A stretch of 56,846 nt of DNA from an uncultured Candidatus Saccharimonas sp. (GCA_943353165.1 CALRAM010000004.1:1-56846), one strand, 5' to 3'. Counted from the first letter of the stretch, positions 9,328-48,020 are shown. Notes: generated by a model from the letters alone, not told the origin. Made by a program: numbers and translations.

Positions 9328-10121
9328 GTATAATTGAGGCGATAATACTAGGTATAACCCAGGGACTGACAGAGTTTATACCCATTTCTAGTTCCGGGCA
9401 TCTGATTTTTATGCGACACATATTGGGTGTTTTTGGCAATGATTTGGCGTTTGATGTTGCTTTGCATATAGGTACAATATTGGCGCTAGTAGCAGTTTTT
9501 TATAAAGATATTTGGGAATTGTTCTTGGGATTGTTGGGCAAAAACGACAAAAGAAAACTGGCGTTGCTGCTAATAATCGCTACTGTACCTGCAGTTATCT
9601 CTGGAGTTTTGTTGGAAAAAGCAGCAGAGTCCACCTTTCGTTCGGTCAGGCTAGTAGCTGTGGATATGATAATAGCGGCGTTTTTTATACTCTGGGCAGA
9701 GAGTTTTGCTAAGAAACGAAAAAACCGTACAAAGCTAGAGAATACCAAAACCAAGCAGGCTATAATAATAGGTTTGGCCCAGGCTGCGGCAGTCGTGCCA
9801 GGTATATCACGTTCGGGTGCAACAATTACTGCTGGACTTTTTGCTGGCATGGACAGAGTAGCCGCTACCAGGTTTTCATTTTTGCTGGCCATCCCTATAA
9901 CGACAGGCGCAATATTAAAAGTTTTGGCTGACGGTGGCGGGCTGGCGCAAGGCAACAATCAAACTGGCTTGGTTGTAGTTGGCATAGTTTCGGCGTTTTT
10001 GAGCGGCCTTTTTGCCATCAAGTTTTTGCTGAACTATTTGGCAAAACATTCTCTGTCCGTTTTTGCGTACTATCGAATAGCCGTTGGACTGGCTGCAATA
10101 GCCATAGTTACAATACGCTAA
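9324..10121 (+). CDS. uppP: undecaprenyl-diphosphate phosphatase
   Basis: GITQGLTEFIPISSSGHL and SRSGATITAGL motifs. 265 aa, polytopic. Confidence 0.93.
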   Translation: MSIIEAIILGITQGLTEFIPISSSGHLIFMRHILGVFGNDLAFDVALHIGTILALVAVFYKDIWELFLGLLGKNDKRKLALLLIIATVPAVISGVLLEKAAESTFRSVRLVAVDMIIAAFFILWAESFAKKRKNRTKLENTKTKQAIIIGLAQAAAVVPGISRSGATITAGLFAGMDRVAATRFSFLLAIPITTGAILKVLADGGGLAQGNNQTGLVVVGIVSAFLSGLFAIKFLLNYLAKHSLSVFAYYRIAVGLAAIAIVTIR

Positions 10122-11173
10122 GTCTTTTCTACGGTAACGGATTCGTCTGATAAACCTAATCTGTAGGCCAGAGTAGAGCGTTGCCATTCCTGTACCTTGT
10201 CTATATCTGATTGGTTTTTTACCACAGTAACTTCGCCTATCTCTACTATGGGGTCATCTCTGTCCCACAACACTATAGGCAAGGCCAAGCCATGTTTTAG
10301 GACATCTGTAACTCCTCTGGAAACTTTGCCCAGCCTTATGGATTCTGGCCGATGATCATCGCCCAATTGTACTAGGTCGGTGGCGCCAGATATGGCCCAG
10401 TTAAAGTATTTGCCTGTAGCATGTCGACCCAGCCGATGAACGCGCGAGGAGGGGTCTACTCCTAGCCATTCACGTATGTTTGTGCGCATATTTTTGTTGT
10501 TGGTTTCTATCAGAGTTTCCAGGTCTATTTGTTTTGCATCTGGGTCTAATTGTTGCCTCAATTTTTGGTTAGCTCTAAAAGTTTCTGTCAGGTTCATAAT
10601 GGTTCTGGTGCGTGGAAAACTCATAAAAACGTGGCCAGCTTTTTGAGCTACTTCGCTGGCTGCCATACCAAACGCTTCTATGGTAGTTACCCCTCGGCTG
10701 ATACCTAGGCCGTTATTTTCCTGCCAATTATCGTGCTGAGTGGCCTCTGCCCAGCTGACAGCAAACTCCGCCACATCTATCATTTTCTGGTGCGTAGTCA
10801 GGTGGAACTGATGGCGCCCCTCTTTTCTGTGTAGTTCTGACATGCTGACTAGCGGGCGTTGCCTTTTGAGTTCGTCTACTATGGCGTGATGCATATTTTT
10901 GGCAGCTATATCGGATAGCTGGTTTATGCCCAAAGGTCCGTCAAATTTTGCTGGCGCTGGATACAGATGGGTGGTTTCTAATAGTTGCGAAGGGCTGGCG
11001 GCAGCATCGAACAGCATTGGGCTAAAAAGTCCTCCTGATGACTCGATATGTTTGACGGTAGTTTCGGCTAGAGCTTCGTGTATTGATAGCCTGTCGTCAT
11101 AGGTAAGTTCGGTGTAGTTAAAAGTTGCCATAGTGCGACAAGCATAGCGTGTATCTCTGTTATATTCAAGCAA
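10118..11173 (-). CDS. hypothetical soluble protein with no recognisable domain
   Basis: 351-aa ORF with an alternative start MATFNY at 11131. Divergent from the riboswitch-controlled gene. No motif I can assign. Confidence 0.65.
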   Translation of the reverse strand: MLEYNRDTRYACRTMATFNYTELTYDDRLSIHEALAETTVKHIESSGGLFSPMLFDAAASPSQLLETTHLYPAPAKFDGPLGINQLSDIAAKNMHHAIVDELKRQRPLVSMSELHRKEGRHQFHLTTHQKMIDVAEFAVSWAEATQHDNWQENNGLGISRGVTTIEAFGMAASEVAQKAGHVFMSFPRTRTIMNLTETFRANQKLRQQLDPDAKQIDLETLIETNNKNMRTNIREWLGVDPSSRVHRLGRHATGKYFNWAISGATDLVQLGDDHRPESIRLGKVSRGVTDVLKHGLALPIVLWDRDDPIVEIGEVTVVKNQSDIDKVQEWQRSTLAYRLGLSDESVTVEKT

Positions 11174-11235
11174 ATAATACTACAGCATTCGTAGTAAAAG
11201 CGTGATATTCTGAGAATGTATTTAACAATCAAAAT

Positions 11236-11393
11236 GCTGGAATCCTGTGAAATTCAGGAACTGTGCCGCAACGGTTTACCCTGAGCTTGTCGAAGGGTTA
11301 AAGTCCGATACAGCTGTAATTAATCTCCCGGGCAGGAGTGATATAGCGACTGTGCGATAACCTGCCAGGGAAATACCCGAAGCAGGTTTTTTT
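11236..11393 (+). promoter_or_regulatory. cobalamin riboswitch-like aptamer (compact form, ~11236..11314) plus antiterminator/terminator expression platform (11331..11393)
   Basis: GCUGGAAUCCUGUGAAAUUCAGGAACUGUGCCGCAACGGU closely parallels the conserved Cbl core (E. coli btuB leader, from memory: GGGAAUCCAGUGCGAAUCUGGAGCUGACGCGCAGCGGU). A B12-box-like AAGUCCGAUACAGC is closed by pairing with 5' GCUG. GGCAGG(11331-36)/CCUGCC(11361-66) competes with CCUGC(11361-65)/GCAGG(11382-86) plus U7, which runs into the AUG at 11394. Confidence 0.75.
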
Positions 11394-12752
11394 ATGGAAG
11401 CGATTCATTCAACAGAACAATACTACCCTTTGGAGCATAGGGGTGTAATATCGGCTGCCGAACTATTTGACCGCTCAGATATCGAGGCTGACGCGTGGGA
11501 TATGATAAAAAGCAGAAGAGATTTGCCTGTAGTTGAGACATCAGAACGCGAGCGACACGACAATGCTCGGACTGCCCTCATGGAAGCCCTGACGGCATCT
11601 GGGCATTTGTCTAGGGTAGAGATTAGTGGATCGGTAGAGGAGATAAACGCACAGGTCGTCGGCCGACTATTGAATGGCTGGGACGAGGCTTTGCCAGTAC
11701 ACGAAAAAATGCGTCGTTTTGCAGAACTTTGCGAAGAACTAACTATCCATAAAGTTCATTTGTCCATAGTATCTGGCGATCTACCTCCAGGAACCGCTGT
11801 CAGCGTTATCTCTGACTACCCAGGGGCCATGACAGATTATGATGCCACATCGCTGGGCTACAGGTCGGTAAACAAAAAGGGGATGGTGCGTTCTACTGGC
11901 TTGCGTCAGGAGTCTGACGGCAGTTTTACACGAGTCATAGAACAGGTAAGTCGTAGCAACGGTACATGGAATAGTACCTACGAGTTTATGAAGTCCAGCG
12001 GAATAAAGACGGCAACTGGTTACCCGGACATTGTGGCGTTACAGACACCTTTGATTTACGCGGTAGAGGATTACGCGGACGGTGTAGTGGATTTGGTGCG
12101 TCGCCTAGATATGCATACCGGACAAGGCGTAACATATGGCGATCCTGAAGGTCAAAAAAAACATCCAGCATACGATCAGCTACGCTCTGAATCAGCCAGA
12201 AGGGAACGCGATATACAAGGATTTGTAGGTGACTTGGCAAAACTAGAAGAACAGCTAGATATTTTGCAACGCAACGGGATGACTGTCAACGAACGCAACA
12301 TTATTTTCAAAGAAGAAGTAGACCGAATATTGACCGCTATTTGTACGCTGGAACCAAACTATGCAACCGATACATACGGCAAAAAAGCAGAAAAATATTT
12401 TTATGAGGCTGCCGTTCTGGTTTCTAGAGGAGAAACTGGCCTTGCCCAACAACTACTCGATTCTACTAGTCACCTAAAACAGACGGTTACATTTTGCGGT
12501 ATGTCTATATCTTTAGAAGTCGCCAAAGGAATGGGATTGTGCGTAAATAGTTATGGTGAAGCAGTGGAAAAAGGCAAGGAGTCGTGGCAGTGGAAGAGCG
12601 GTGTCTGTCAGGTAAAATCTTGCCCTACCAGACCAGGCAAAACTACTGTTGGCCCATGTAGTGTTTGCAAAGGCTGTCAGGCTCGGTTTGACAAAGGTAT
12701 AAATCCAACAGCATCAAAACCAATTCCAAAAAAGCCGCAGTCCAGATTATGA
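11394..12752 (+). CDS. hypothetical soluble protein with a C-terminal Cys-rich zinc-ribbon-like module
   Basis: 452-aa ORF directly behind the riboswitch terminator. C-terminus is WKSGVCQVKSCPTRPGKTTVGPCSVCKGCQARFDKG. ATGA overlap with nadD. Confidence 0.7.
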   Translation: MEAIHSTEQYYPLEHRGVISAAELFDRSDIEADAWDMIKSRRDLPVVETSERERHDNARTALMEALTASGHLSRVEISGSVEEINAQVVGRLLNGWDEALPVHEKMRRFAELCEELTIHKVHLSIVSGDLPPGTAVSVISDYPGAMTDYDATSLGYRSVNKKGMVRSTGLRQESDGSFTRVIEQVSRSNGTWNSTYEFMKSSGIKTATGYPDIVALQTPLIYAVEDYADGVVDLVRRLDMHTGQGVTYGDPEGQKKHPAYDQLRSESARRERDIQGFVGDLAKLEEQLDILQRNGMTVNERNIIFKEEVDRILTAICTLEPNYATDTYGKKAEKYFYEAAVLVSRGETGLAQQLLDSTSHLKQTVTFCGMSISLEVAKGMGLCVNSYGEAVEKGKESWQWKSGVCQVKSCPTRPGKTTVGPCSVCKGCQARFDKGINPTASKPIPKKPQSRL

Positions 12753-28983: not shown

Positions 28984-29059
28984 GGGGGTGTAGCTCAGTG
29001 GTTAGAGCAGTCGGCTCATAACCGATTGGTCGAAAGTTCAATTCTTTCCACCCCCACCA
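28984..29059 (+). tRNA. tRNA with CAT anticodon, most like tRNA-Ile2 (lysidine-modified); elongator Met is not excluded
   Basis: The cloverleaf folds by hand: acceptor GGGGGTG/CACCCCC, D arm GCTCAGTGGTTAGAGC, anticodon arm GTCGG-CTCATAA-CCGAT, T arm GAAAG-TTCAATT-CTTTC, encoded CCA. The anticodon arm CGGCTCATAACCG resembles known Ile2 tRNAs. A hairpin-plus-T-tract terminator follows (29062..29090). Confidence 0.9.
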
Positions 29060-29144
29060 AAAAAATCTCATCTTTGATGGGATTTTTATTTTGGCGCTAA
29101 GTCCTTCTGATGTTGTCTTTGACTGTTATAATATTAGCTGTCAT

Positions 29145-29603
29145 ATGCTAGAAAAAATAAAATCAATAACAAGCCATTCATTTCTACACAACTTCAAGGA
29201 CATTCATTTTATTGGATTATGTATAATTGGCGTCATAGTTCTGTCGGTAAGCTGGAGCGGTGCAGGAATCATCGATACAAACTATAAACTCCAGCGTCAG
29301 ATATCTGAATTGCAACAAAAAAATGAAGTAATCGAATTGCAAAACCAGAATCTGAGTCTGGGCAATCAATACTACAAGACAGACCAATATCTGGAGCTCC
29401 AGGCCAGACGCCAGTTTGGCAAGGGTGCTGCGGGAGAAACTTTGGTGCTAGTGCCCAAAAGTGTAGCATTGTCGCGTACAGTTGATTTGTCTAAAAGCTC
29501 CAGTCAAAAGCCGGATCAAGGCGTAGAAAAACCATTTTATCAAAGGAATTTCGAGGCTTGGATGGACTTTTTCTTTAGGCTCCAGAGGTCTGCTAATAGT
29601 TGA
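29145..29603 (+). CDS. septum formation initiator (FtsB/DivIC/FtsL-like)
   Basis: TM helix plus leucine-zipper-like QRQISELQQKNEVIELQNQNLSL, followed by DQYLELQARRQFGKGAAGETLVLVP. The track ORF starts at 29091, inside the tRNA terminator. Confidence 0.75.
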   Translation: MLEKIKSITSHSFLHNFKDIHFIGLCIIGVIVLSVSWSGAGIIDTNYKLQRQISELQQKNEVIELQNQNLSLGNQYYKTDQYLELQARRQFGKGAAGETLVLVPKSVALSRTVDLSKSSSQKPDQGVEKPFYQRNFEAWMDFFFRLQRSANS

Positions 29604-29663
29604 ATGTTTGCATAGTTTTGGCGCTATTAGTGGATACCTTAAAAAGGAGCGTTTTAATCAATA

Positions 29664-30263
29664 CTAAAGAGTTGCAGCTTGGGCTATTTGTATGAGTACT
29701 CGCTGTGCTGATGCGTCATTGTATGTCAACGCATTAGTTGGCTGACTAATACCGAATGTATATATTTTTAGGCCCTGCCTAACAGACAATACAAAATCTC
29801 TGCTATTTGATATAGCTGCGTCTTTGGCTGTGTAACTAGCGCTATCGCCCAGCCCATCTACAGATCCGCCATCATTGACAACGTATTTTTGTGAAGCATC
29901 TAGATTGGCCTGATTGGCGTATGTTCCTAGGTCTATGGTGAAACTATTGGTAACCGTTGCCCCTGCTACAAATGGGTATACACATGTCTGAGCCTTGTCT
30001 CCCTTGCCAATATCTACTATTCCCGTGTCACTTGGACCTTGCAGGTTATTTGCCGGTTCTCCTAGTAATGATTTGACGGTTGTTTTGGAAACTCCAAAGC
30101 ATGCACCGGATTCTTTAGCAATTATAGTAGCGGGCTTATCATTATTTTTGCTTGTAGTGCTTTTGCGACCCATAACTGTCCAGCCGACTATACCCAGAAC
30201 ACCTATGACTACTACTGCTATTATGATTTCAATTGTTGTAAATCCTGACTGCTGTTTTTTCAT
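29664..30263 (-). CDS. type IV pilin-like protein (prepilin N-terminal cleavage/methylation domain)
   Basis: MKKQQSG|FTTIEIIIAVVVIGVLGIVG class III signal. 199 aa. Confidence 0.85.
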   Translation of the reverse strand: MKKQQSGFTTIEIIIAVVVIGVLGIVGWTVMGRKSTTSKNNDKPATIIAKESGACFGVSKTTVKSLLGEPANNLQGPSDTGIVDIGKGDKAQTCVYPFVAGATVTNSFTIDLGTYANQANLDASQKYVVNDGGSVDGLGDSASYTAKDAAISNSRDFVLSVRQGLKIYTFGISQPTNALTYNDASAQRVLIQIAQAATL

Positions 30264-30365
30264 ATTGCGATACCTTTTTAGTTATGCTTTAAAGTATAGG
30301 ATTATTATCTAGCAATTACTAGTATCAAAAACAATACACATGACGGCGTGGCGGGTGTCTGATTT

Positions 30366-30559
30366 TGGTAGCGGCCGTTCGACTATGAGGCCCGAGTCTC
30401 ATCGCTCAGGCACGAATAGGGGCAGGACTCGGTCACCTCTGGCGACCCCAGAAAAACATCTTTGCAAACCAGTTTGCAAGAGTTTGTTCCCGTCCATCCC
30501 GCCCCCGGCGGGATTCCCCTGCGACCTTTTAGCGTCGCTGATTCGAGAACTAACCATGA
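30366..30559 (-). other. GC-rich structured non-coding segment carrying the 3'-half blocks of tRNA-fMet (AAGGTCGCAGG / GAGTCCTGCCCC / CGCTACCA) separated by 87-nt and 45-nt hairpin-rich insertions
   Basis: Direct comparison with the intact tRNA at 30597..30671. Blocks are at 30518-28, 30419-30 and 30366-73 (plus coordinates). The inserts fold into hairpins, e.g. ATCCCGC-CGGGG-GCGGGAT and GGTCGCC-AGA-GGTGACC. The ORFs here are spurious. Confidence 0.6.
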
Positions 30560-30592
30560 CCAAAACAAAAGCCCATCCTAAGATGGGCACTT
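30560..30592 (-). terminator. intrinsic terminator after tRNA-fMet
   Basis: Minus strand: GCCCATC-TTAG-GATGGGC followed by TTTTGTTTT. Confidence 0.8.
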
Positions 30593-30596
30593 GTTT

Positions 30597-30671
30597 TGGT
30601 AGCGGGGGCAGGACTCGAACCTGCGACCTTGTGGTTATGAGCCACACGAGCTGCCACTGCTCTACCCCGCG
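30597..30671 (-). tRNA. initiator tRNA-fMet (CAT)
   Basis: Minus strand: CGCGGGGTAGAGCAGTGGCAGCTCGTGTGGCTCATAACCACAAGGTCGCAGGTTCGAGTCCTGCCCCCGCTACCA. It has an unpaired 1:72 position (C:U) and high similarity to bacterial initiator tRNAs. CCA is encoded. Confidence 0.9.
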
Positions 30672-30694
30672 ATATTGTTGGACTATAGTTGAAA

Positions 30695-30801
30695 GGTTCG
30701 GCGGGAAAGTAGGGTCGTTGGCTCATAATGAGCGATTGACTCACGATGAGCTGCCACTGCCCCGCCTGTCTTTCCGACAGGACGGACAGGTCTACCCCGC
30801 G
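30695..30801 (-). other. tRNA-fMet-like 5' mosaic: CGCGGGGTAGA + 30-nt hairpin insert + GCAGTGGCAGCTC + divergent tail containing GCTCATTATGAGC
   Basis: The 11-nt and 13-nt blocks (plus the 5-nt upstream flank AATAT) are identical to the intact tRNA 130 nt downstream. The insert is CCTGTCCGTCCTGTCGGAAAGACAGGCGGG (30761..30790). It lies directly behind a TTGACT-N17-TAAAAT promoter. Confidence 0.6.
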
Positions 30802-30836
30802 ATATTAGTATTTTGTTAGTTGCAAAACCTTGTACA

Positions 30837-30865
30837 ATTTTAGCAAACAGGGGTAAATAAGTCAA
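30837..30865 (-). promoter_or_regulatory. sigma70-type promoter of the tRNA-fMet locus (TTGACT-N17-TAAAAT)
   Basis: Minus strand: TTGACTtatttacccctgtttgcTAAAAT. The spacer shares TTTACCCCTGT with the tRNA-Lys promoter. Confidence 0.65.
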
Positions 30866-30891
30866 ATAGACAAATCAGGCTAACAATCTAA

Positions 30892-30939
30892 TTGACATAT
30901 AAGCAAAAGCGTGTATAATAGCTAGTGTTGTCATGACAA
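30892..30939 (+). promoter_or_regulatory. consensus promoter TTGACA-N16-TATAAT followed by a perfect 12-bp palindrome TTGTCATGACAA (putative operator)
   Basis: TTGACA at 30892-97, TATAAT at 30914-19, palindrome at 30928-39 around the predicted transcription start. Confidence 0.65.
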
Positions 30940-30968
30940 AATAAAAAACTAAAAAAAGGGCATTAAAA

Positions 30969-31049
30969 ATGAGCGAATTATCATACGAATTAGCGCAGAC
31001 TACTAATCAGGAAATCCTGGCAGTAGACTCGATAATCAGCAAAATTTAA
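30969..31049 (+). CDS. 26-aa small ORF (MSELSYELAQTTNQEILAVDSIISKI); could alternatively be a non-coding sRNA
   Basis: Found by eye, as it is below the ORF-track cutoff. It is bracketed by the consensus promoter and a terminator. The RBS is weak (AAGGG). Confidence 0.4.
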   Translation: MSELSYELAQTTNQEILAVDSIISKI

Positions 31050-31066
31050 TAAATTTCTGCATACAA

Positions 31067-31100
31067 AAAAAGAGCCTCCAAAGCTGGAAGCTCTTTTTTA
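31067..31100 (+). terminator. intrinsic terminator
   Basis: AGAGCCTCCA-aagc-TGGAAGCTCT followed by TTTTTT. Confidence 0.75.
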
Positions 31101-31235
31101 AATTTTTTGGAGTTTTTCTTTGCTACTAAATATAGACCTTATTTTTTAAAACAACAAGCTTATGTTTGTAGTCAAAAAAACTAGCCAGATGTAGTATTTT
31201 GTGGTATATTCACCTCTGTTTACAAGTATAGATAT

Positions 31236-31312
31236 GGCGGCGTAGCTCAGATGGTTAGAGCGCAGGACTCATAAGCCTGAGGTCACTGGTTCAATTCCAG
31301 TCGCCGCTACCA
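31236..31312 (+). tRNA. elongator tRNA-Met (CAT)
   Basis: GGCGGCGTAGCTCAGATGGTTAGAGCGCAGGACTCATAAGCCTGAGGTCACTGGTTCAATTCCAGTCGCCGCTACCA. The cloverleaf folds. It resembles Gram-positive elongator Met tRNAs. An extended -10 TGGTATATT lies at 31202. Confidence 0.88.
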
Positions 31313-31318
31313 AAAAAC

Positions 31319-31350
31319 ACCCGACTTTTTTAGTTGGGTTTTTTTATTTT
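31319..31350 (+). terminator. intrinsic terminator after tRNA-Met
   Basis: ACCCGAC-tttttta-GTTGGGT followed by TTTTTTTATTTTT. Confidence 0.75.
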
Positions 31351-31458
31351 TAAAACCGTAGAAGTCAGCTATACGTAAAGTGCCAAAAAGCTTAAAAAGT
31401 TTTGCCTGTGGGCTCCATAGTGTATGATAGGGCAATATCAAAGAAGGAGAACCAAAAA

Positions 31459-31695
31459 ATGTCAGGTGAAAAGCAAAGACAAAAGCAAGTAGAAAAAAAT
31501 TCAAACGAGCGAACGCGCGAAGTTAGCGCCCAGAATGTTGGCGAACAGGCTGTGGCAGGCGCCAGCCCCGAAGCTCAGAAATCTGCCGAAGAACTCAAAA
31601 ACGATATTGACTCTTTGTTGGACGAAATAGATTTAGTATTAGAAGAAAACGCCGAGGAGTTTGTGCGCAGCTACCTACAACAAGGTGGCGAATAG
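31459..31695 (+). CDS. pup: prokaryotic ubiquitin-like protein Pup (C-terminal GGE)
   Basis: 78 aa, AAGGAGA RBS 8 nt upstream. The C-terminal half DIDSLLDEIDLVLEENAEEFVRSYLQQGGE matches the Pup hallmark (M. tuberculosis ...DDLLDEIDDVLEENAEDFVRAYVQKGGQ). The N-terminal half is disordered and charged. The track ORF (31402) has a spurious 19-aa extension. Confidence 0.85.
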   Translation: MSGEKQRQKQVEKNSNERTREVSAQNVGEQAVAGASPEAQKSAEELKNDIDSLLDEIDLVLEENAEEFVRSYLQQGGE

Positions 31696-31696
31696 T

Positions 31697-32209
31697 TTAT
31701 AGCCAGCGAATAATTTGGGCGTTTGGTATTTGTTCAGTGTTGTTGAATTGATACTCTGGCTGGAGCAGGCTACGCATTGCTCTACCAAAAGATCCGTGGC
31801 TGACGACCAAAACATTTTGGGCCGGCATAGTGTTCAGCCAGTCTAGGGTCTTTCTGGCTCTATCGATAATATCGGATACCGTTTCTACGCCTTCTACATT
31901 GTCTATGTCCATGTATGGGTCGTATTTTTGGCCTTCTGCTTCACCAAAATGTCTCTCTATTAGAGTGTCGTTGGTTTGGATTTTGGCCAGAGGATAGTTA
32001 ATCTGTTCGGCAATAATCTGGGCTGTTTCTATGGCTCTGCCTTGGGGCGACGAGACTATGAGGTCAATTTTTAGAGTTTCAACTTTTTGGCTGGCTTTTT
32101 TGGCTTGGAGCCTGCCCTCTGCGGTCAGCGGTGTTTCGGTTGTTCCAGCGCGCAAACCCAACATATTCATTTCTGACAGGCCGTGCCTAATAAAGTAAAG
32201 TTTTTTCAT
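31697..32209 (-). CDS. histidine phosphatase family protein (phosphoglycerate-mutase-like)
   Basis: LYFIRHGLSEMN (RHG motif) and VVSHGSFGR (second His). 170 aa. Convergent with pup, with a 1-nt gap. Confidence 0.82.
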   Translation of the reverse strand: MKKLYFIRHGLSEMNMLGLRAGTTETPLTAEGRLQAKKASQKVETLKIDLIVSSPQGRAIETAQIIAEQINYPLAKIQTNDTLIERHFGEAEGQKYDPYMDIDNVEGVETVSDIIDRARKTLDWLNTMPAQNVLVVSHGSFGRAMRSLLQPEYQFNNTEQIPNAQIIRWL

Positions 32210-32227: not shown

Positions 32228-33115
32228 GTGAAAATAGATTTACAACCAGGAACATACATAATAGCCGTTTCGGGTGGCGTGGATTCTATGGTTTTGCTAG
32301 ACATTTTGCGTCAAAAAAAAGGCGTCAATCTAATAGTTGCGCATTTTGATCACGGAATACGCCCAGAATCCATAATCGACCGTCAGCTAGTTGCGCAGGT
32401 GGCCGGCCAACACGGGCTGTCTTTTATCTATGACAATGGATACTTAGGAGCTGGAGCTAGCGAAGACAAAGCCCGAATAGCGCGTTACAAATTTCTGGAA
32501 TCTGTCAAAGCTGCCAGCGGGGCCAGAGCCATCGTAACCGCCCATCACGCAGACGATGCTATGGAAACTGCCATATTGCAAATCCTGCGCGGTACGGGAC
32601 GACGGGGGTTGTCGTCGCTAGCATCCAACAACGATATAGTCAGACCGCTACTACTGGTGTCAAAAGCCGACATTTACGCATATGCCAACGCTAACGGCAT
32701 AGTTTGGAACGAAGACAGCACCAATAAAGATATTTTGTATGCCAGAAACAAAGTTCGTCACGATATTGTTCCTAAATTTTCTGCCAAAAACAAAGAAAAA
32801 ATACACAAAATCATAGCCAGCGCTCACCAGACAAACAAAGAAATCGATGAGTTGTTGGATTTGGCATTGCATATGCAGGATTCGCAAACTACTCTGGACA
32901 GAAAATGGTTCATATCGTTGCCTCATAATGTTTCTACCGAGCTGGTAGCCCATTGGTTGCGTCGCCAAAAAATTCGTGGCTTCAATCGCCGACAGCTAGA
33001 AAAGCTGGTTGTATCTATGAAAACATTACCAAAAGACCACAAAATAGTTGTAAACAAAACTCACGCCGTAGAGATAAAGTCCAAGATATTAGCACTCATT
33101 AGGCTAGAGCGCTAG
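32228..33115 (+). CDS. tilS: tRNA(Ile)-lysidine synthetase
   Basis: IIAVSGGVDSMVLLDIL PP-loop and HFDHGIR. GTG start. 295 aa. Confidence 0.88.
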   Translation: MKIDLQPGTYIIAVSGGVDSMVLLDILRQKKGVNLIVAHFDHGIRPESIIDRQLVAQVAGQHGLSFIYDNGYLGAGASEDKARIARYKFLESVKAASGARAIVTAHHADDAMETAILQILRGTGRRGLSSLASNNDIVRPLLLVSKADIYAYANANGIVWNEDSTNKDILYARNKVRHDIVPKFSAKNKEKIHKIIASAHQTNKEIDELLDLALHMQDSQTTLDRKWFISLPHNVSTELVAHWLRRQKIRGFNRRQLEKLVVSMKTLPKDHKIVVNKTHAVEIKSKILALIRLER

Positions 33116-33143
33116 CAATCTTAAAAAGTACTCTGTATAATAG

Positions 33144-35018
33144 ATGGCTATGGACAAGAAATCTTTTAGACCAAAATCAAAAGCGCCAGAACCAAAAAAG
33201 CGCAATGCAAAGAATATCGGGTTTATTTTATTATTAATGCTGTTTGGTTTTATAGCATTTTCTGCATATGGTCAGCCATCCAAACTAAAGGACATATCGT
33301 TATCTGATGTCATAAAACAAGCCAACGCTGGCGATTACAAAAAAATCATCGCCAAAGGTGGTAGTCTGGAAATAATAAAAAAGGGCGAAGATAAAGCCAG
33401 CCTAAAATCGCATATAAATTCGCAGGTTAGCCTAAAAGATGAGGGCGTTGATTATTCAAAGGTTACCGTAGATTATCAGCCAGAATCCAGCACAGGTTCT
33501 ATGTGGCTACAGATAGGTGGAACTCTACTAATTCCGCTATTGATGTTTGGAGGTATATTTTATCTACTGCGTAGCGCTCAGGGGCAGGGAAACCAAGCTA
33601 TGAGTTTCGGCAAGAGCAAGGCACGGCTGTATGGCAATGAAAAAGACAAGATATCGTTTAAAAATGTTGCCGGCAGCGACGAAGCCAAGCAGGACCTACA
33701 GGAAGTCGTGGAGTTCCTGAAATATCCCAAAAAGTTTGAATCGGTCGGCGCAAAGATACCTAAAGGAGTATTGTTGGTTGGTCCTCCCGGAACAGGCAAA
33801 ACTATGCTGGCCAGAGCTGTAGCCGGCGAAGCCGATGTGCCTTTCTTTAGTATTTCTGGATCAGAATTCGTAGAGATGTTTGTCGGTGTTGGTGCCAGTA
33901 GAGTACGTGATTTGTTTACAAAGGCAAAGAAAAATGCACCTTGTATCATATTTGTAGACGAGATTGATGCCGTCGGACGACGAAGAGGTAGCGGTATGGG
34001 TGGCGGACACGATGAACGCGAACAAACCCTAAACCAGATATTAGTAGAGATGGACGGCTTTGAACAAGGCACGACTGTAATAGTGTTGGCAGCCACCAAC
34101 CGTGCAGATGTGCTGGATCCGGCATTGCTGCGACCAGGCAGGTTTGACCGTCGCGTAGATATTGATCTGCCAGATCGTAAAGACCGTGAAGCAATCTTAA
34201 AAGTACATTTTGACAAAAAGCCATTAGCCAAAGGTGTTGACCTAGACGCGCTAGCCGCAAAGTCTGCTGGATCCTCTGGGGCAGATTTGGCAAATATAGC
34301 AAATGAATCAGCTATATTGGCAGCCCGCCATAACAAAAACGAGATTACCCAGAGCGATGTAACTGCTGCATTTGAAAGAGTAGCCATAGGACCCGAACGA
34401 AAGAGCAAGGTGATGAGCGATCACGAAAAAGAGGTGACTGCCTATCACGAAGCAGGACACGCTTTAGTCGGTCATGTGTTGCCAGATAGCGACATGGTCC
34501 ACAAAGTTACCATTATTCCCCGCGGTGGAACTGGCGGTGTGACTTGGTTTATTCCGCCAGAGGACAAGAGCTACCACAACATCATAGAATACAAAGATGT
34601 ATTGGCTAGAATGCTAGGTGGCCGTATAGCAGAAGAAGTCGTATTTGGACCAGACCGCGTAACTACAGGTGCCGGCAACGACCTCCAGAAAGCATCTGAA
34701 CTGGCACGAGAGATGATAACCAATCAGGGCATGGGAACAAAACTTCGGGATCAGGTTTTTCACGTAGAAGACGGGATTATGATGGAGCGAATTATGCACG
34801 AACGCCAGTATAGCGACGAAACAGCTAAAGAGATAGATGATGAAATCGAAGCTCTTATAACTGAAGCCGCCACCCGAGCTCGAATAGTCATAAAGGCTAA
34901 CAGAGAAAAGCTAAATGAACTCCAAAAACGCCTCCAAGAAAAAGAAACAGTCGAAGCCGAAGAAGTGTTGGCTGTTCTAAAAGGCTCCATTATGCCAAAA
35001 GCAGCAGCACTTTATTAG
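33144..35018 (+). CDS. ftsH: ATP-dependent zinc metalloprotease FtsH
   Basis: Two TM helices, Walker A GPPGTGKT, Walker [13 protein letters not shown], and the HEAGHA zinc site. Confidence 0.97.
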
Positions 35019-46623: not shown

Positions 46624-47103
46624 ATGAGCTCGAAGTCCACATTACCTATTATAGGTAGAACAGAAAAGGTGTTTTTCCCCGCACTTCAGGCAGGTCCCAT
46701 AAAAGCCAAGGTGGATACAGGTGCAGACCTAAGTAGTTTGTGGGCTACTGCTATAAAACTTGTGGACGAGGGTTTGACTTTTGTAGTTTTTGGCAAAAGT
46801 TCCCCAAATTACACAGGCAAAGTTGTTGTAGTACCAAAAGGGCAGTATGCAGTCACCACAGTGGTCAGTTCGTTTGGGGAAAAACAAACCAGGTATGTCG
46901 TAAAGCTCCAAATAAAGATCGCCAACAAACTAGTTCTGGGTACTTTTACCCTAGCCAACAGGTCGCGCAGTACATACCCAATTTTGCTGGGCAGAAAACT
47001 GATTAGTGGCAAGTTTCTGGTCGATGTATCATCTAGTAGTTCGGGCAAAAGGCCTGCAACCTCAAAGATTTCAGCCAATAATAGTAAAGAAGTAAGGAAA
47101 TAA
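46624..47103 (+). CDS. RimK-associated retropepsin-like protease (DUF785, 'ATP-dependent zinc protease' family; RimB-like)
   Basis: IGRTEKVFFPALQAGPIKAKVDTGADLSSLWA pattern. Lies immediately upstream of rimK. Confidence 0.8.
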   Translation: MSSKSTLPIIGRTEKVFFPALQAGPIKAKVDTGADLSSLWATAIKLVDEGLTFVVFGKSSPNYTGKVVVVPKGQYAVTTVVSSFGEKQTRYVVKLQIKIANKLVLGTFTLANRSRSTYPILLGRKLISGKFLVDVSSSSSGKRPATSKISANNSKEVRK

Positions 47104-47105
47104 TT

Positions 47106-48020
47106 ATGAAAATAGCAATTCTCAGCAACGGACCTGGAAACTACTCTACTAGACGCCTAAAAGAAGAGGCCGAGCTACGCGGTCACGAAGTTCGAGTCAT
47201 AAAATACCGCGAATGTTACGCCACCATAGAAAAGAGCAATCCAGAGATAAACTACCATGGCGAAAAGTTAAAAGACTTTGACGCTATAATTCCGCGCATC
47301 GCAGCCTCGTACACGAGGTACGGCGGAGCTATTGCTAGACAGTTCGAGATGCAAGGCGTTTTTACCACAGCTAGCTCCATAGCTATCGCAAGGTCTAGGG
47401 ACAAACTGCGCAGTATGCAACTGTTGGCTAGGGCAGATGTGGGTATCCCAAAAACTGTTTTCTCTCGTGGTGTTACGCCCGACGTAGATGATTTGATAGA
47501 GAGTTTGGGCGGTACCCCAGTCATCATAAAATTAGCCAGCGGAACACACGGCAACGGTGTGGTATTGGCAGAAACCAAAAAGGCAGCAAAATCTGTTTTG
47601 CAGGCTTTTTATGTTATGGACGACGACGGTACGAATATCATGCTCCAAGAATTTGTAGAGGAATCCGCCGGAACCGACATTCGCGTGTTGGTGGTTGGAG
47701 GCAAAGTAGTAGCCAGCATGAAGCGACAGAGCTTGGACGACGATTTTCGGTCAAACTTGCACCAAGGTGGTGAAGGCGTTATGGTAAAACTCACAGACGA
47801 AGAACGCAAAATTGCCCAGCGTGCCGCCAAAGCTATGGGCTTGTCTGTTTGTGGAGTTGACTTGATGCGTAGCAACAGAGGTCCATTGGTACTAGAAGTA
47901 AATTCTAGCCCCGGTTTTCAGATAGAAAAAGTAACAGGTCGAAATGTGGCCTTGGCAATCATAGAATATATAGAACAAAACGCCAACAAAAGCCGTCGAC
48001 GCGACAGAGTGGGCGCCTAG
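47106..48020 (+). CDS. rimK: RimK-family ATP-grasp alpha-L-glutamate ligase
   Basis: MKIAILS...RSRDKLRSMQLL...PVIIKLASGTHGNGVVLAE...DIRVLVVGGKVVASMKR...GVDLMRSNRGPLVLEVNSSPG. Confidence 0.93.
   Translation: MKIAILSNGPGNYSTRRLKEEAELRGHEVRVIKYRECYATIEKSNPEINYHGEKLKDFDAIIPRIAASYTRYGGAIARQFEMQGVFTTASSIAIARSRDKLRSMQLLARADVGIPKTVFSRGVTPDVDDLIESLGGTPVIIKLASGTHGNGVVLAETKKAAKSVLQAFYVMDDDGTNIMLQEFVEESAGTDIRVLVVGGKVVASMKRQSLDDDFRSNLHQGGEGVMVKLTDEERKIAQRAAKAMGLSVCGVDLMRSNRGPLVLEVNSSPGFQIEKVTGRNVALAIIEYIEQNANKSRRRDRVGA

Follow-up and report, generated by a model that had tools for sequence, protein, structure and literature searches.

A stand-alone Pup gene in a Saccharibacteria genome

The window analyzed here, a stretch of 56,846 nucleotides from an uncultured Candidatus Saccharimonas sp. 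(GCA_943353165.1 CALRAM010000004.1:1-56846), encodes a genuine member of the Pup (prokaryotic ubiquitin-like protein) family at positions 31459 to 31695 on the plus strand. The Pup itself is canonical, and what is new is the phylum in which it occurs and its orphan genomic setting. Pupylation is regarded as a defining trait of Actinobacteria and of a small number of other phyla. The pup gene usually lies embedded among the genes of its enzymes. The ORF begins with ATG and runs for 78 codons, and its C-terminal end reads ...EEFVRSYLQQGGE (also given as ...LEENAEEFVRSYLQQGGE) directly before a TAG stop codon. Against the Pfam Pup profile PF05639, the comparison proposed in the initial annotation, the product scores 73.4 bits (E = 2.8e-20, profile positions 9 to 69 of 69), far over the gathering cutoff of 27, and it scores 59.6 bits against the NCBIfam profile TIGR03687 (pupylate_cterm; cutoff 41.45). 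Both curated cutoffs are thus exceeded, and the claim that this 78-aa ORF has the diagnostic Pup architecture is borne out. The protein is small and non-globular, its 18 acidic residues outnumber the 9 basic ones, it lacks cysteine and tryptophan, and it terminates exactly in Gly-Gly-Glu (the PupE form, here as QQGGE). This GGE ending recurs in two relatives discussed below, L089 and L007, and is common among Pups in general (52 of the 117 retrieved, ~45%).

The start of the gene deserves some comment. A mechanical ORF call begins at a TTG codon at position 31402 and yields 97 aa, and most of the public gene calls give the 78-aa form. L089, a relative with 81% identity, has a 1-nt indel between ribosome-binding site and ATG, and as a result an in-frame TAG lies 10 codons before the start. 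Because the 19-aa N-terminal extension is disrupted in this way, we consider it spurious and the 78-aa reading right, as the initial annotation had maintained. A Shine-Dalgarno sequence, AAGGAG, is found at positions 31444 to 31449 on the plus strand, 9 nt before the ATG, and is invariant in the window, L089, and L007.

Conservation of the enzyme-binding segment

Codons 51 to 78 (DSLLDEIDLVLEENAEEFVRSYLQQGGE; positions 31609 to 31692, plus strand) correspond, by PDB alignment, column conservation, and AF2 prediction, to the two-helix segment that occupies the grooves of PafA and Dop and ends in the ligatable glutamate. The last 27 residues of Pup are known to form two orthogonal helices in the groove of PafA and Dop (PMC8599861), and this segment is present in the last ~27 residues of the window protein. 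Residues 51 to 78 align to the 28-residue Pup fragments crystallized with Dop (PDB 7OY3 and 7OXY) and to the PafA-Pup fusion 4BJR, and the longer stretch from residue 28 to 78 aligns to M. tuberculosis Pup as found in the Mpa-Pup complexes 3M9D and 7PX9, so the described likeness of the C-terminal half to mycobacterial Pup holds. In a comparison of 38 Pups, segment 51 to 78 retains all 11 invariant columns (D51, L54, I57, D58, L61, N64, A65, F68, Q74, G76, and G77) and eight of the 10 nearly invariant ones. The AF2 model, generated from a 38-sequence alignment, consists of helices only, with a pLDDT above 90 for residues 37 to 74 and of ~59 for the N-terminus. A model without a globular fold fits a Pup that folds on its partners only (PMC8599861).

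PafA phosphorylates the gamma-carboxylate of the C-terminal glutamate of Pup and transfers it to a substrate lysine, and the PupQ form requires prior deamidation by Dop (PMC8599861). The GGE terminus is, by this established biochemistry, the PupE form. Given that all invariant columns of the segment and the terminal GGE are kept, the window Pup should be a competent PafA substrate without Dop, in line with the earlier claim that its terminal glutamate makes it ligation-competent without Dop deamidation (PMC8599861).

One position departs from the family motif QKGG[QE]. Codon 75 (positions 31681 to 31683) encodes a glutamine in place of the near-invariant lysine, so that the window protein, together with P0002 (the Pup of L089), ends in QQGGE; among 232 other Pups, 231 have QK at this position, one has QR, and none has glutamine. 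In mycobacteria, di-Pup forms at the motif lysine, and Pup with the K61R substitution is ligated normally in vitro, which makes a glutamine at this position compatible with membership in the Pup family (PMC4783102). Since the di-Pup lysine is replaced, the window Pup probably cannot itself be pupylated at codon 75.

Immediate genomic surroundings

Directly upstream of pup lies a tRNA-Met (CAT) gene (31236 to 31312, plus strand), the third tRNA-Met within 2.3 kb, which was identified with ARAGORN and Rfam. The tRNA gene is followed on the same strand by an intrinsic-terminator-like hairpin and T-run found in the terminator scan (31319 to 31349; also given as 31319 to 31339), which isolates pup from the tRNA transcript and indicates that pup is a separate transcription unit. 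Downstream, a convergent histidine phosphatase gene of the His_Phos_1 family (31697 to 32209, minus strand) has its stop codon 1 nt past the Pup stop, and it is followed by tilS and ftsH (32228 to 35018, plus strand), a conserved anchor pair just upstream of which the Saccharibacteria-type Pups of two sublineages are located. The ORF, tRNA, Pfam, and terminator scans all confirm the described placement of pup between the tRNA-Met terminator and a convergent histidine phosphatase, with tilS and ftsH near. The further claim that the gene has its own promoter-like sequence and ribosome-binding site stood in part: AAGGAG is a clear ribosome-binding site, but the promoter is weak by consensus scan, and no canonical sigma-70 promoter was called directly upstream of pup. 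What is found there is a -10-like hexamer, TATGAT (31423 to 31428, plus strand), without a canonical -35; it is a candidate promoter element of the gene's own and lies in a conserved block, GGTGTATGATAGG, shared by the window and L089.

Lineage and soundness of the assembly

The initial annotation had raised the possibility of a CPR/Saccharibacteria-type organism, and the genes around pup leave little doubt of it. At identities of at least 90%, the cluster mates of FtsH, DnaK, TilS, and the histidine phosphatase are named Candidatus Saccharibacteria bacterium (NCBI MAGs), and the best 80 FtsH loci among GTDB species representatives (71 to 86% identity) are almost all from Saccharibacteria/Saccharimonadales. 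Pup is otherwise overwhelmingly actinobacterial, which would favor reading the gene as an artefact, i.e., as a chance ORF or as DNA of actinobacterial origin that ended up in a Saccharibacteria contig through mis-assembly or mis-binning. Against this, the exact Pup protein is encoded by 29 contigs (NCBI, ENA, JGI, and Logan) of up to 510,168 bp, and six independent contigs have an identical neighborhood of pup. Assemblies made independently in several projects thus have the gene in the same context, on contigs that reach 198 and 510 kb. Its GC content (46.4%, with 43.8% for the window) is like that of its flanks, and a diverged relative that has the same neighboring gene retains the ribosome-binding site and the block before it. 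A profile E-value of 2.8e-20 likewise speaks against a chance ORF. Mis-assembly is excluded for practical purposes, and the artefact explanation as a whole is effectively refuted.

A minor irregularity was seen in the MEHR18-2 scaffolds of the same species (L001, L002, and L005, ~11.7 to 16.5 kb), in which FtsH, MurJ, and LepA are not called at full length and a shadow ORF is called instead. A tblastn search still finds FtsH in these scaffolds at >99% identity, and the missing full-length calls are probably due to local assembly errors.

Partner genes in the window and in control loci

No Pup ligase or Dop, proteasome, or Mpa/ARC gene was detected by Pfam among the 28 window ORFs of at least 185 aa or in the Pfam record for 21.5 to 41.7 kb. 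The profiles PF03136, PF00227, and PF17758 have no match within the 57 kb, and the only AAA proteins there are FtsH and RuvB. By Pfam, the window contains sugar and cell-wall genes, transporters, an aminoacyl-tRNA synthetase, Dus, DivIC, a pilin, TilS, FtsH, MurJ, and LepA, as well as an HrcA-GrpE-DnaK-DnaJ set, RimK/RimB, ComEC, and RuvABC. When Mpa, Dop, PrcB, PrcA, and PafA of the canonical locus L090 were used as tblastn queries against the window and against Saccharibacteria loci totaling ~1.27 Mb, the AAA domain of FtsH was all that matched, in related loci, and the strongest matches listed do not include the window. Pfam and tblastn therefore agree with the earlier statement that ligase, depupylase, Mpa/ARC, and 20S genes (PrcA/PrcB) do not occur in the 57 kb.

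Candidates for a less obvious ligase were also considered. Seven window ORFs lack a Pfam family, and three of them (452, 351, and 287 aa) were rescanned at E <= 10, which gave no credible match; we rejected them as hidden ligases on this ground and because no PafA/Dop tblastn match falls in the window among the matches listed. The 351-aa (minus strand) and 452-aa (plus strand) ORFans are arranged divergently at positions 10118 to 12752, and the C-terminus of the 452-aa protein is Cys-rich. The RimK ATP-grasp ligase at positions 47106 to 48020 was rejected as a surrogate ligase, since it belongs to a canonical RimK/RimB pair, differs in fold from PafA, and lies 15 kb away. This pair, a RimB-like protease gene next to a RimK ATP-grasp glutamate ligase gene (46624 to 48020), is an observation of its own in a reduced genome.

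As a control, JGI metagenomes were scanned with a profile built from the Saccharibacteria-type Pups. The 80 Pup loci listed range from 48 to 73% GC (79 of them from 51 to 73%), and no additional Saccharibacteria-type locus is among these 80. Where the flanks are long enough, nearly all of the control loci encode Dop immediately before Pup and/or PrcB-PrcA-PafA immediately after it, in many cases together with Mpa. In contrast, partner genes are absent from the available flanks of the Saccharibacteria-type loci (the window, L001 to L006, L089, and L094 to L100), and likewise from those of L093. Neither in the window nor at any Saccharibacteria-type Pup locus recovered is pup linked to dop or pafA.

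Related stand-alone Pups and a co-located ORFan

The window Pup has counterparts. L007/P0174-P0176, P0178, and P0002/L089 are also stand-alone Pups, found on Saccharibacteria contigs of ~44 to 47% GC just upstream of tilS-ftsH, and they share with the window Pup a middle motif, A[VI].G[AVT][ST], as well as the C-terminal motif. P0177/L093 is set apart by a different context and a GC content of 57.6%. The gene order in the window is tRNA-Met, Pup, His_Phos (minus strand), tilS, ftsH; in the L007 and P0178 lineages it is NUDIX (minus strand), Pup, a 225- to 227-aa ORFan, tilS, ftsH. The L007-type Pups thus differ from the window Pup in being flanked by NUDIX and the 227-aa ORFan instead of tRNA-Met and His_Phos, and they are 49% identical to it. 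The P0178 protein ends in GGQ, unlike the window protein with its GGE, and this ending implies access to a Dop activity, as PupQ must be deamidated (PMC8599861).

The ORFan of the L007 and P0178 lineages begins 44 bp after Pup on the same strand (L098, 1166 to 1849; L095, 1407 to 2084) and is very rare, with three clusters in 5.8 billion proteins and four representatives in 1.84 billion. Pfam and PDB sequence searches give no match for it, its AF2 model (pLDDT 39.8) is unusable, and it is absent from the 57-kb window.

In L089, the pup gene (183 to 437) is known from a single 956-bp Logan contig and has an in-frame TAG at codon 25, where the window has CAG. The public gene call reads both TAGs as glutamine and continues past the true stop, giving an 84-aa product. 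The codon-25 TAG is either a very recent inactivation, i.e., L089 has a pseudogene, or a contig or read error; by the same token, pup is possibly dispensable in L089, or the contig is in error.

Distribution, origin, and selection

To survey the distribution of the gene, a Pup HMM was run on the six-frame ORFs of the best 80 Saccharibacteria FtsH species loci. Among the 62 related species loci with >1 kb upstream of tilS, only one has a Pup, namely L007, from an uncultured Ca. Saccharimonas sp. whose FtsH and TilS are 86% and 54% identical to those of the window. A profile search of 5.8 billion proteins, in which 7,893 of 8,000 scored candidates had E <= 0.001, added P0174-P0176 (L007 type), P0178, and P0177; the organism-named matches are all actinobacterial. 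L008, which is equally related, has NUDIX, His_Phos, tilS, and ftsH without a Pup. Pup in Saccharibacteria is thus rare and patchy, yet it occupies the same variable spot upstream of tilS-ftsH in two sublineages. Conservation in relatives, on which the initial annotation had made its reading depend, is supported by the L089 orthologue and by the further metagenomic relatives found.

The nearest relatives outside Saccharibacteria are P0093, P0004, and P0028, which lie in mpa-dop-pup-prcB-prcA-pafA-...-tatAC loci of 55 to 62% GC, and one of their PafA clusters bears the name Acidimicrobiaceae. Because the closest outside relatives are actinobacterial Pups in canonical loci, the gene was probably acquired horizontally from Actinomycetota by the ancestor of a small Saccharibacteria clade, and its host-like GC content suggests that the acquisition is old and not recent. 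The window Pup is 49% identical to the L007 type and 56 to 57% identical to some actinobacterial Pups, so that monophyly of the Saccharibacteria Pups is unsupported by sequence alone, and there may have been one or several acquisitions.

Between the window and L089, dN/dS is 0.17 overall, with 0.24 for the N-terminal half and 0.12 for the C-terminal half (dS 0.65), and the adjacent His_Phos gene, taken as a baseline, has a dN/dS of 0.14. All amino-acid variants seen within the species fall in the N-terminal half. The dN/dS values indicate that pup is maintained by purifying selection, which acts most on the enzyme-binding segment.

No stand-alone Pup was found in 50,697 phage and 72,556 plasmid records. 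The single "phage" match, MT835496.1, is a piece of 74% GC with mpa-dop-pup-pafA and was rejected as actinobacterial DNA, and the single "plasmid" match is a chromosome-sized Nonomuraea record. The former (L181, MT835496.1 37633-49716) is labeled "UNVERIFIED: Bacteriophage sp." in GenBank, comes from human feces, and is almost certainly actinobacterial chromosomal DNA.

Comparison with known pupylation systems

Actinobacterial Pups (M. tuberculosis Rv2111c and those of C. glutamicum and A. cellulolyticus) belong to the same profile family and length class as the window Pup, and, as in it, the N-terminal half is of low confidence (pLDDT ~59 in the window model) and the C-terminal half is helical. 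They also have almost the same PafA/Dop/Mpa-binding sequence, LLDEID.VLEENAE.FVR.Y.Q.GG. The differences are that the window Pup comes from Saccharibacteria and not Actinomycetota, stands alone after a tRNA-Met gene and not in an mpa-dop-pup-prcBA-pafA locus, ends in QQGGE and not QKGG[QE], and has a longer, lysine-rich N-terminal half.

Two other kinds of system are worth comparing. Corynebacterium has proteasome-less pupylation, with Pup, PafA, Dop, and ARC but no 20S. If its ligase is encoded elsewhere, the window species would likewise pupylate without a nearby 20S, and perhaps without any; however, proteasome-less Actinobacteria keep dop, pup, and pafA clustered, whereas the window pup is linked to none of these and its ligase is putative. 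UBact, which occurs in Gram-negative phyla, is also a Pup-like tag outside Actinobacteria, but it forms a sequence family of its own, and its gene lies next to those of PafA/Dop-like and Mpa-like proteins and of the proteasome. The window protein is instead a canonical Pup by profile and lacks such neighbors. Many Pup types occur without proteasomes (PMC4783102).

Full-text literature searches returned no paper on pupylation, PafA, or Pup/proteasome in Saccharibacteria, Patescibacteria, CPR, or epibionts, and the Saccharibacteria comparative-genomics literature that was checked is without pupylation, PafA, or proteasome terms.

Possible roles of the orphan Pup

Our preferred reading, which we hold tentatively and judge slightly short of evenly probable, is that the window carries a functional pup of the PupE form whose ligase and partner enzymes are encoded elsewhere in the same genome, i.e., a scattered pupylation system, possibly without a proteasome. 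The tag would be short and non-globular, and ~28 residues at its C-terminal end would make up two helices in the groove of a PafA-type ligase, which would phosphorylate the side-chain carboxylate of the terminal glutamate and join this residue to a lysine of a target protein, and the helical middle region could dock on the coiled coil of an Mpa/ARC-type partner. The enzyme-binding motif LLDEID.VLEENAEEFVR.Y.Q.GGE is almost unchanged in the window Pup, and so strongly conserved an interface suggests that enzymes of the PafA/Dop/Mpa type still "read" it; we infer that a PafA/Dop-type reader still exists somewhere, as we infer conjugation at all, the location of the ligase, and the horizontal origin of the gene. 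To our knowledge, every described Pup-bearing organism encodes its own PafA, and the window represents ~5% of a ~1 Mb genome; it is for these reasons that we look to the same genome for the ligase. Several observations weigh against a scattered system of the organism's own. Linkage is near-universal in the control loci and absent from the Saccharibacteria-type loci, although the transfer of a whole operon would lead one to expect some of it. The searched literature does not link pupylation or PafA with Saccharibacteria or Patescibacteria, the sole contig of the 81%-identical relative has a TAG at codon 25, and the near-invariant motif lysine is a glutamine here.

The same loss of linkage in every locus, set against the controls, would be expected if only the 230-bp pup had been captured from an actinobacterial host by an organism with no ligase of its own. 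In this second and rather unlikely scenario, Pup would enter the cytoplasm of the host during episymbiosis, where the PafA of the host would conjugate it or the PafA/Dop/Mpa of the host would be occupied by it, and host protein turnover would be perturbed to the benefit of the parasite, an outcome we regard as just as doubtful and propose by analogy with viruses, some of which carry ubiquitin genes. Selection keeps exactly the interface that PafA, Dop, and Mpa read, and the GGQ-ending relative P0178 needs a Dop. The lifestyle would also fit: Saccharibacteria are reported to be obligate epibionts with actinobacterial hosts (Actinomyces, Schaalia, and Ca. Phosphoribacter), the cultivated relatives of the window organism live on Actinobacteria, and a conjugation-type type IV secretion system is reported in Patescibacteria. 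It is chiefly the lost linkage and this reported lifestyle that lend the host-directed scenario what probability it has. A small unfolded Pup would suit translocation, and without its di-Pup lysine (QQGGE) it fits the role of a tag or decoy not meant to be pupylated itself (PMC4783102). On the other hand, Pup has no secretion signal, Saccharibacteria are not known to deliver proteins into hosts, an inter-bacterial Pup effector has no known precedent, and the phage and plasmid records contain no stand-alone Pup. Less likely still is that the protein is used without conjugation, as a free binding partner or regulator (e.g., with the 227-aa ORFan or an AAA+ protease), or is a slowly decaying relic. 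The ORFan 44 bp after Pup in the L007 and P0178 lineages, the nonsense codon in L089, and the patchiness among close relatives, with L008 lacking Pup, all point this way, but a dN/dS of 0.17 that is tightest at the C-terminal enzyme-binding segment, together with the kept GGE, is unlike a relic, and a mere binder needs no exact C-terminal GG[EQ]. The window species, moreover, has no such ORFan in the 57 kb, and for the ORFan itself neither a fold nor a family could be detected.

A conserved stand-alone Pup in an epibiont with a reduced genome is of interest under either of the two leading readings. If the scattered system is real and the unlinked ligase is the organism's own, protein tagging extends into the candidate phyla radiation. 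If there is no such ligase, the gene would represent a new kind of host manipulation through the host's own tagging system, and this Pup would be the first known to be encoded by a parasite, a counterpart of virus-encoded ubiquitin. Either way, a defined set of loci is gained, comprising seven protein clusters and, in one sublineage, the co-located 227-aa ORFan.

Other elements upstream of pup

The region directly upstream of pup (28984 to 31312) holds three tRNA-Met (CAT) genes in 2.3 kb and a 21-nt partial tRNA repeat (30656 to 30676 and 30786 to 30806), and in strain L003 three extra genes (YdjC and others) are inserted in this tRNA-Met cluster. The region is a rearrangement/integration hotspot. 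Adjoining the minus-strand tRNA-Met gene is a GC-rich stretch of ~230 nt (30335 to 30565) that public gene calls place within a 159-aa ORF. Rfam gives no match to it even at E <= 1, and its minus-strand fold has a z of -1.6; an undescribed structured RNA is one possibility, a remnant another. Between two of the tRNA-Met genes, a perfect 12/12 sigma-70 consensus promoter (TTGACA-16-TATAAT, 30892 to 30919) precedes an ORF of 26 aa (30969 to 31049, MSELSYELAQTTNQEILAVDSIISKI), behind which lies a 15-bp hairpin with a T-run (31066 to 31099). The whole (30892 to 31099) has the appearance of a compact micro-gene or sRNA unit.
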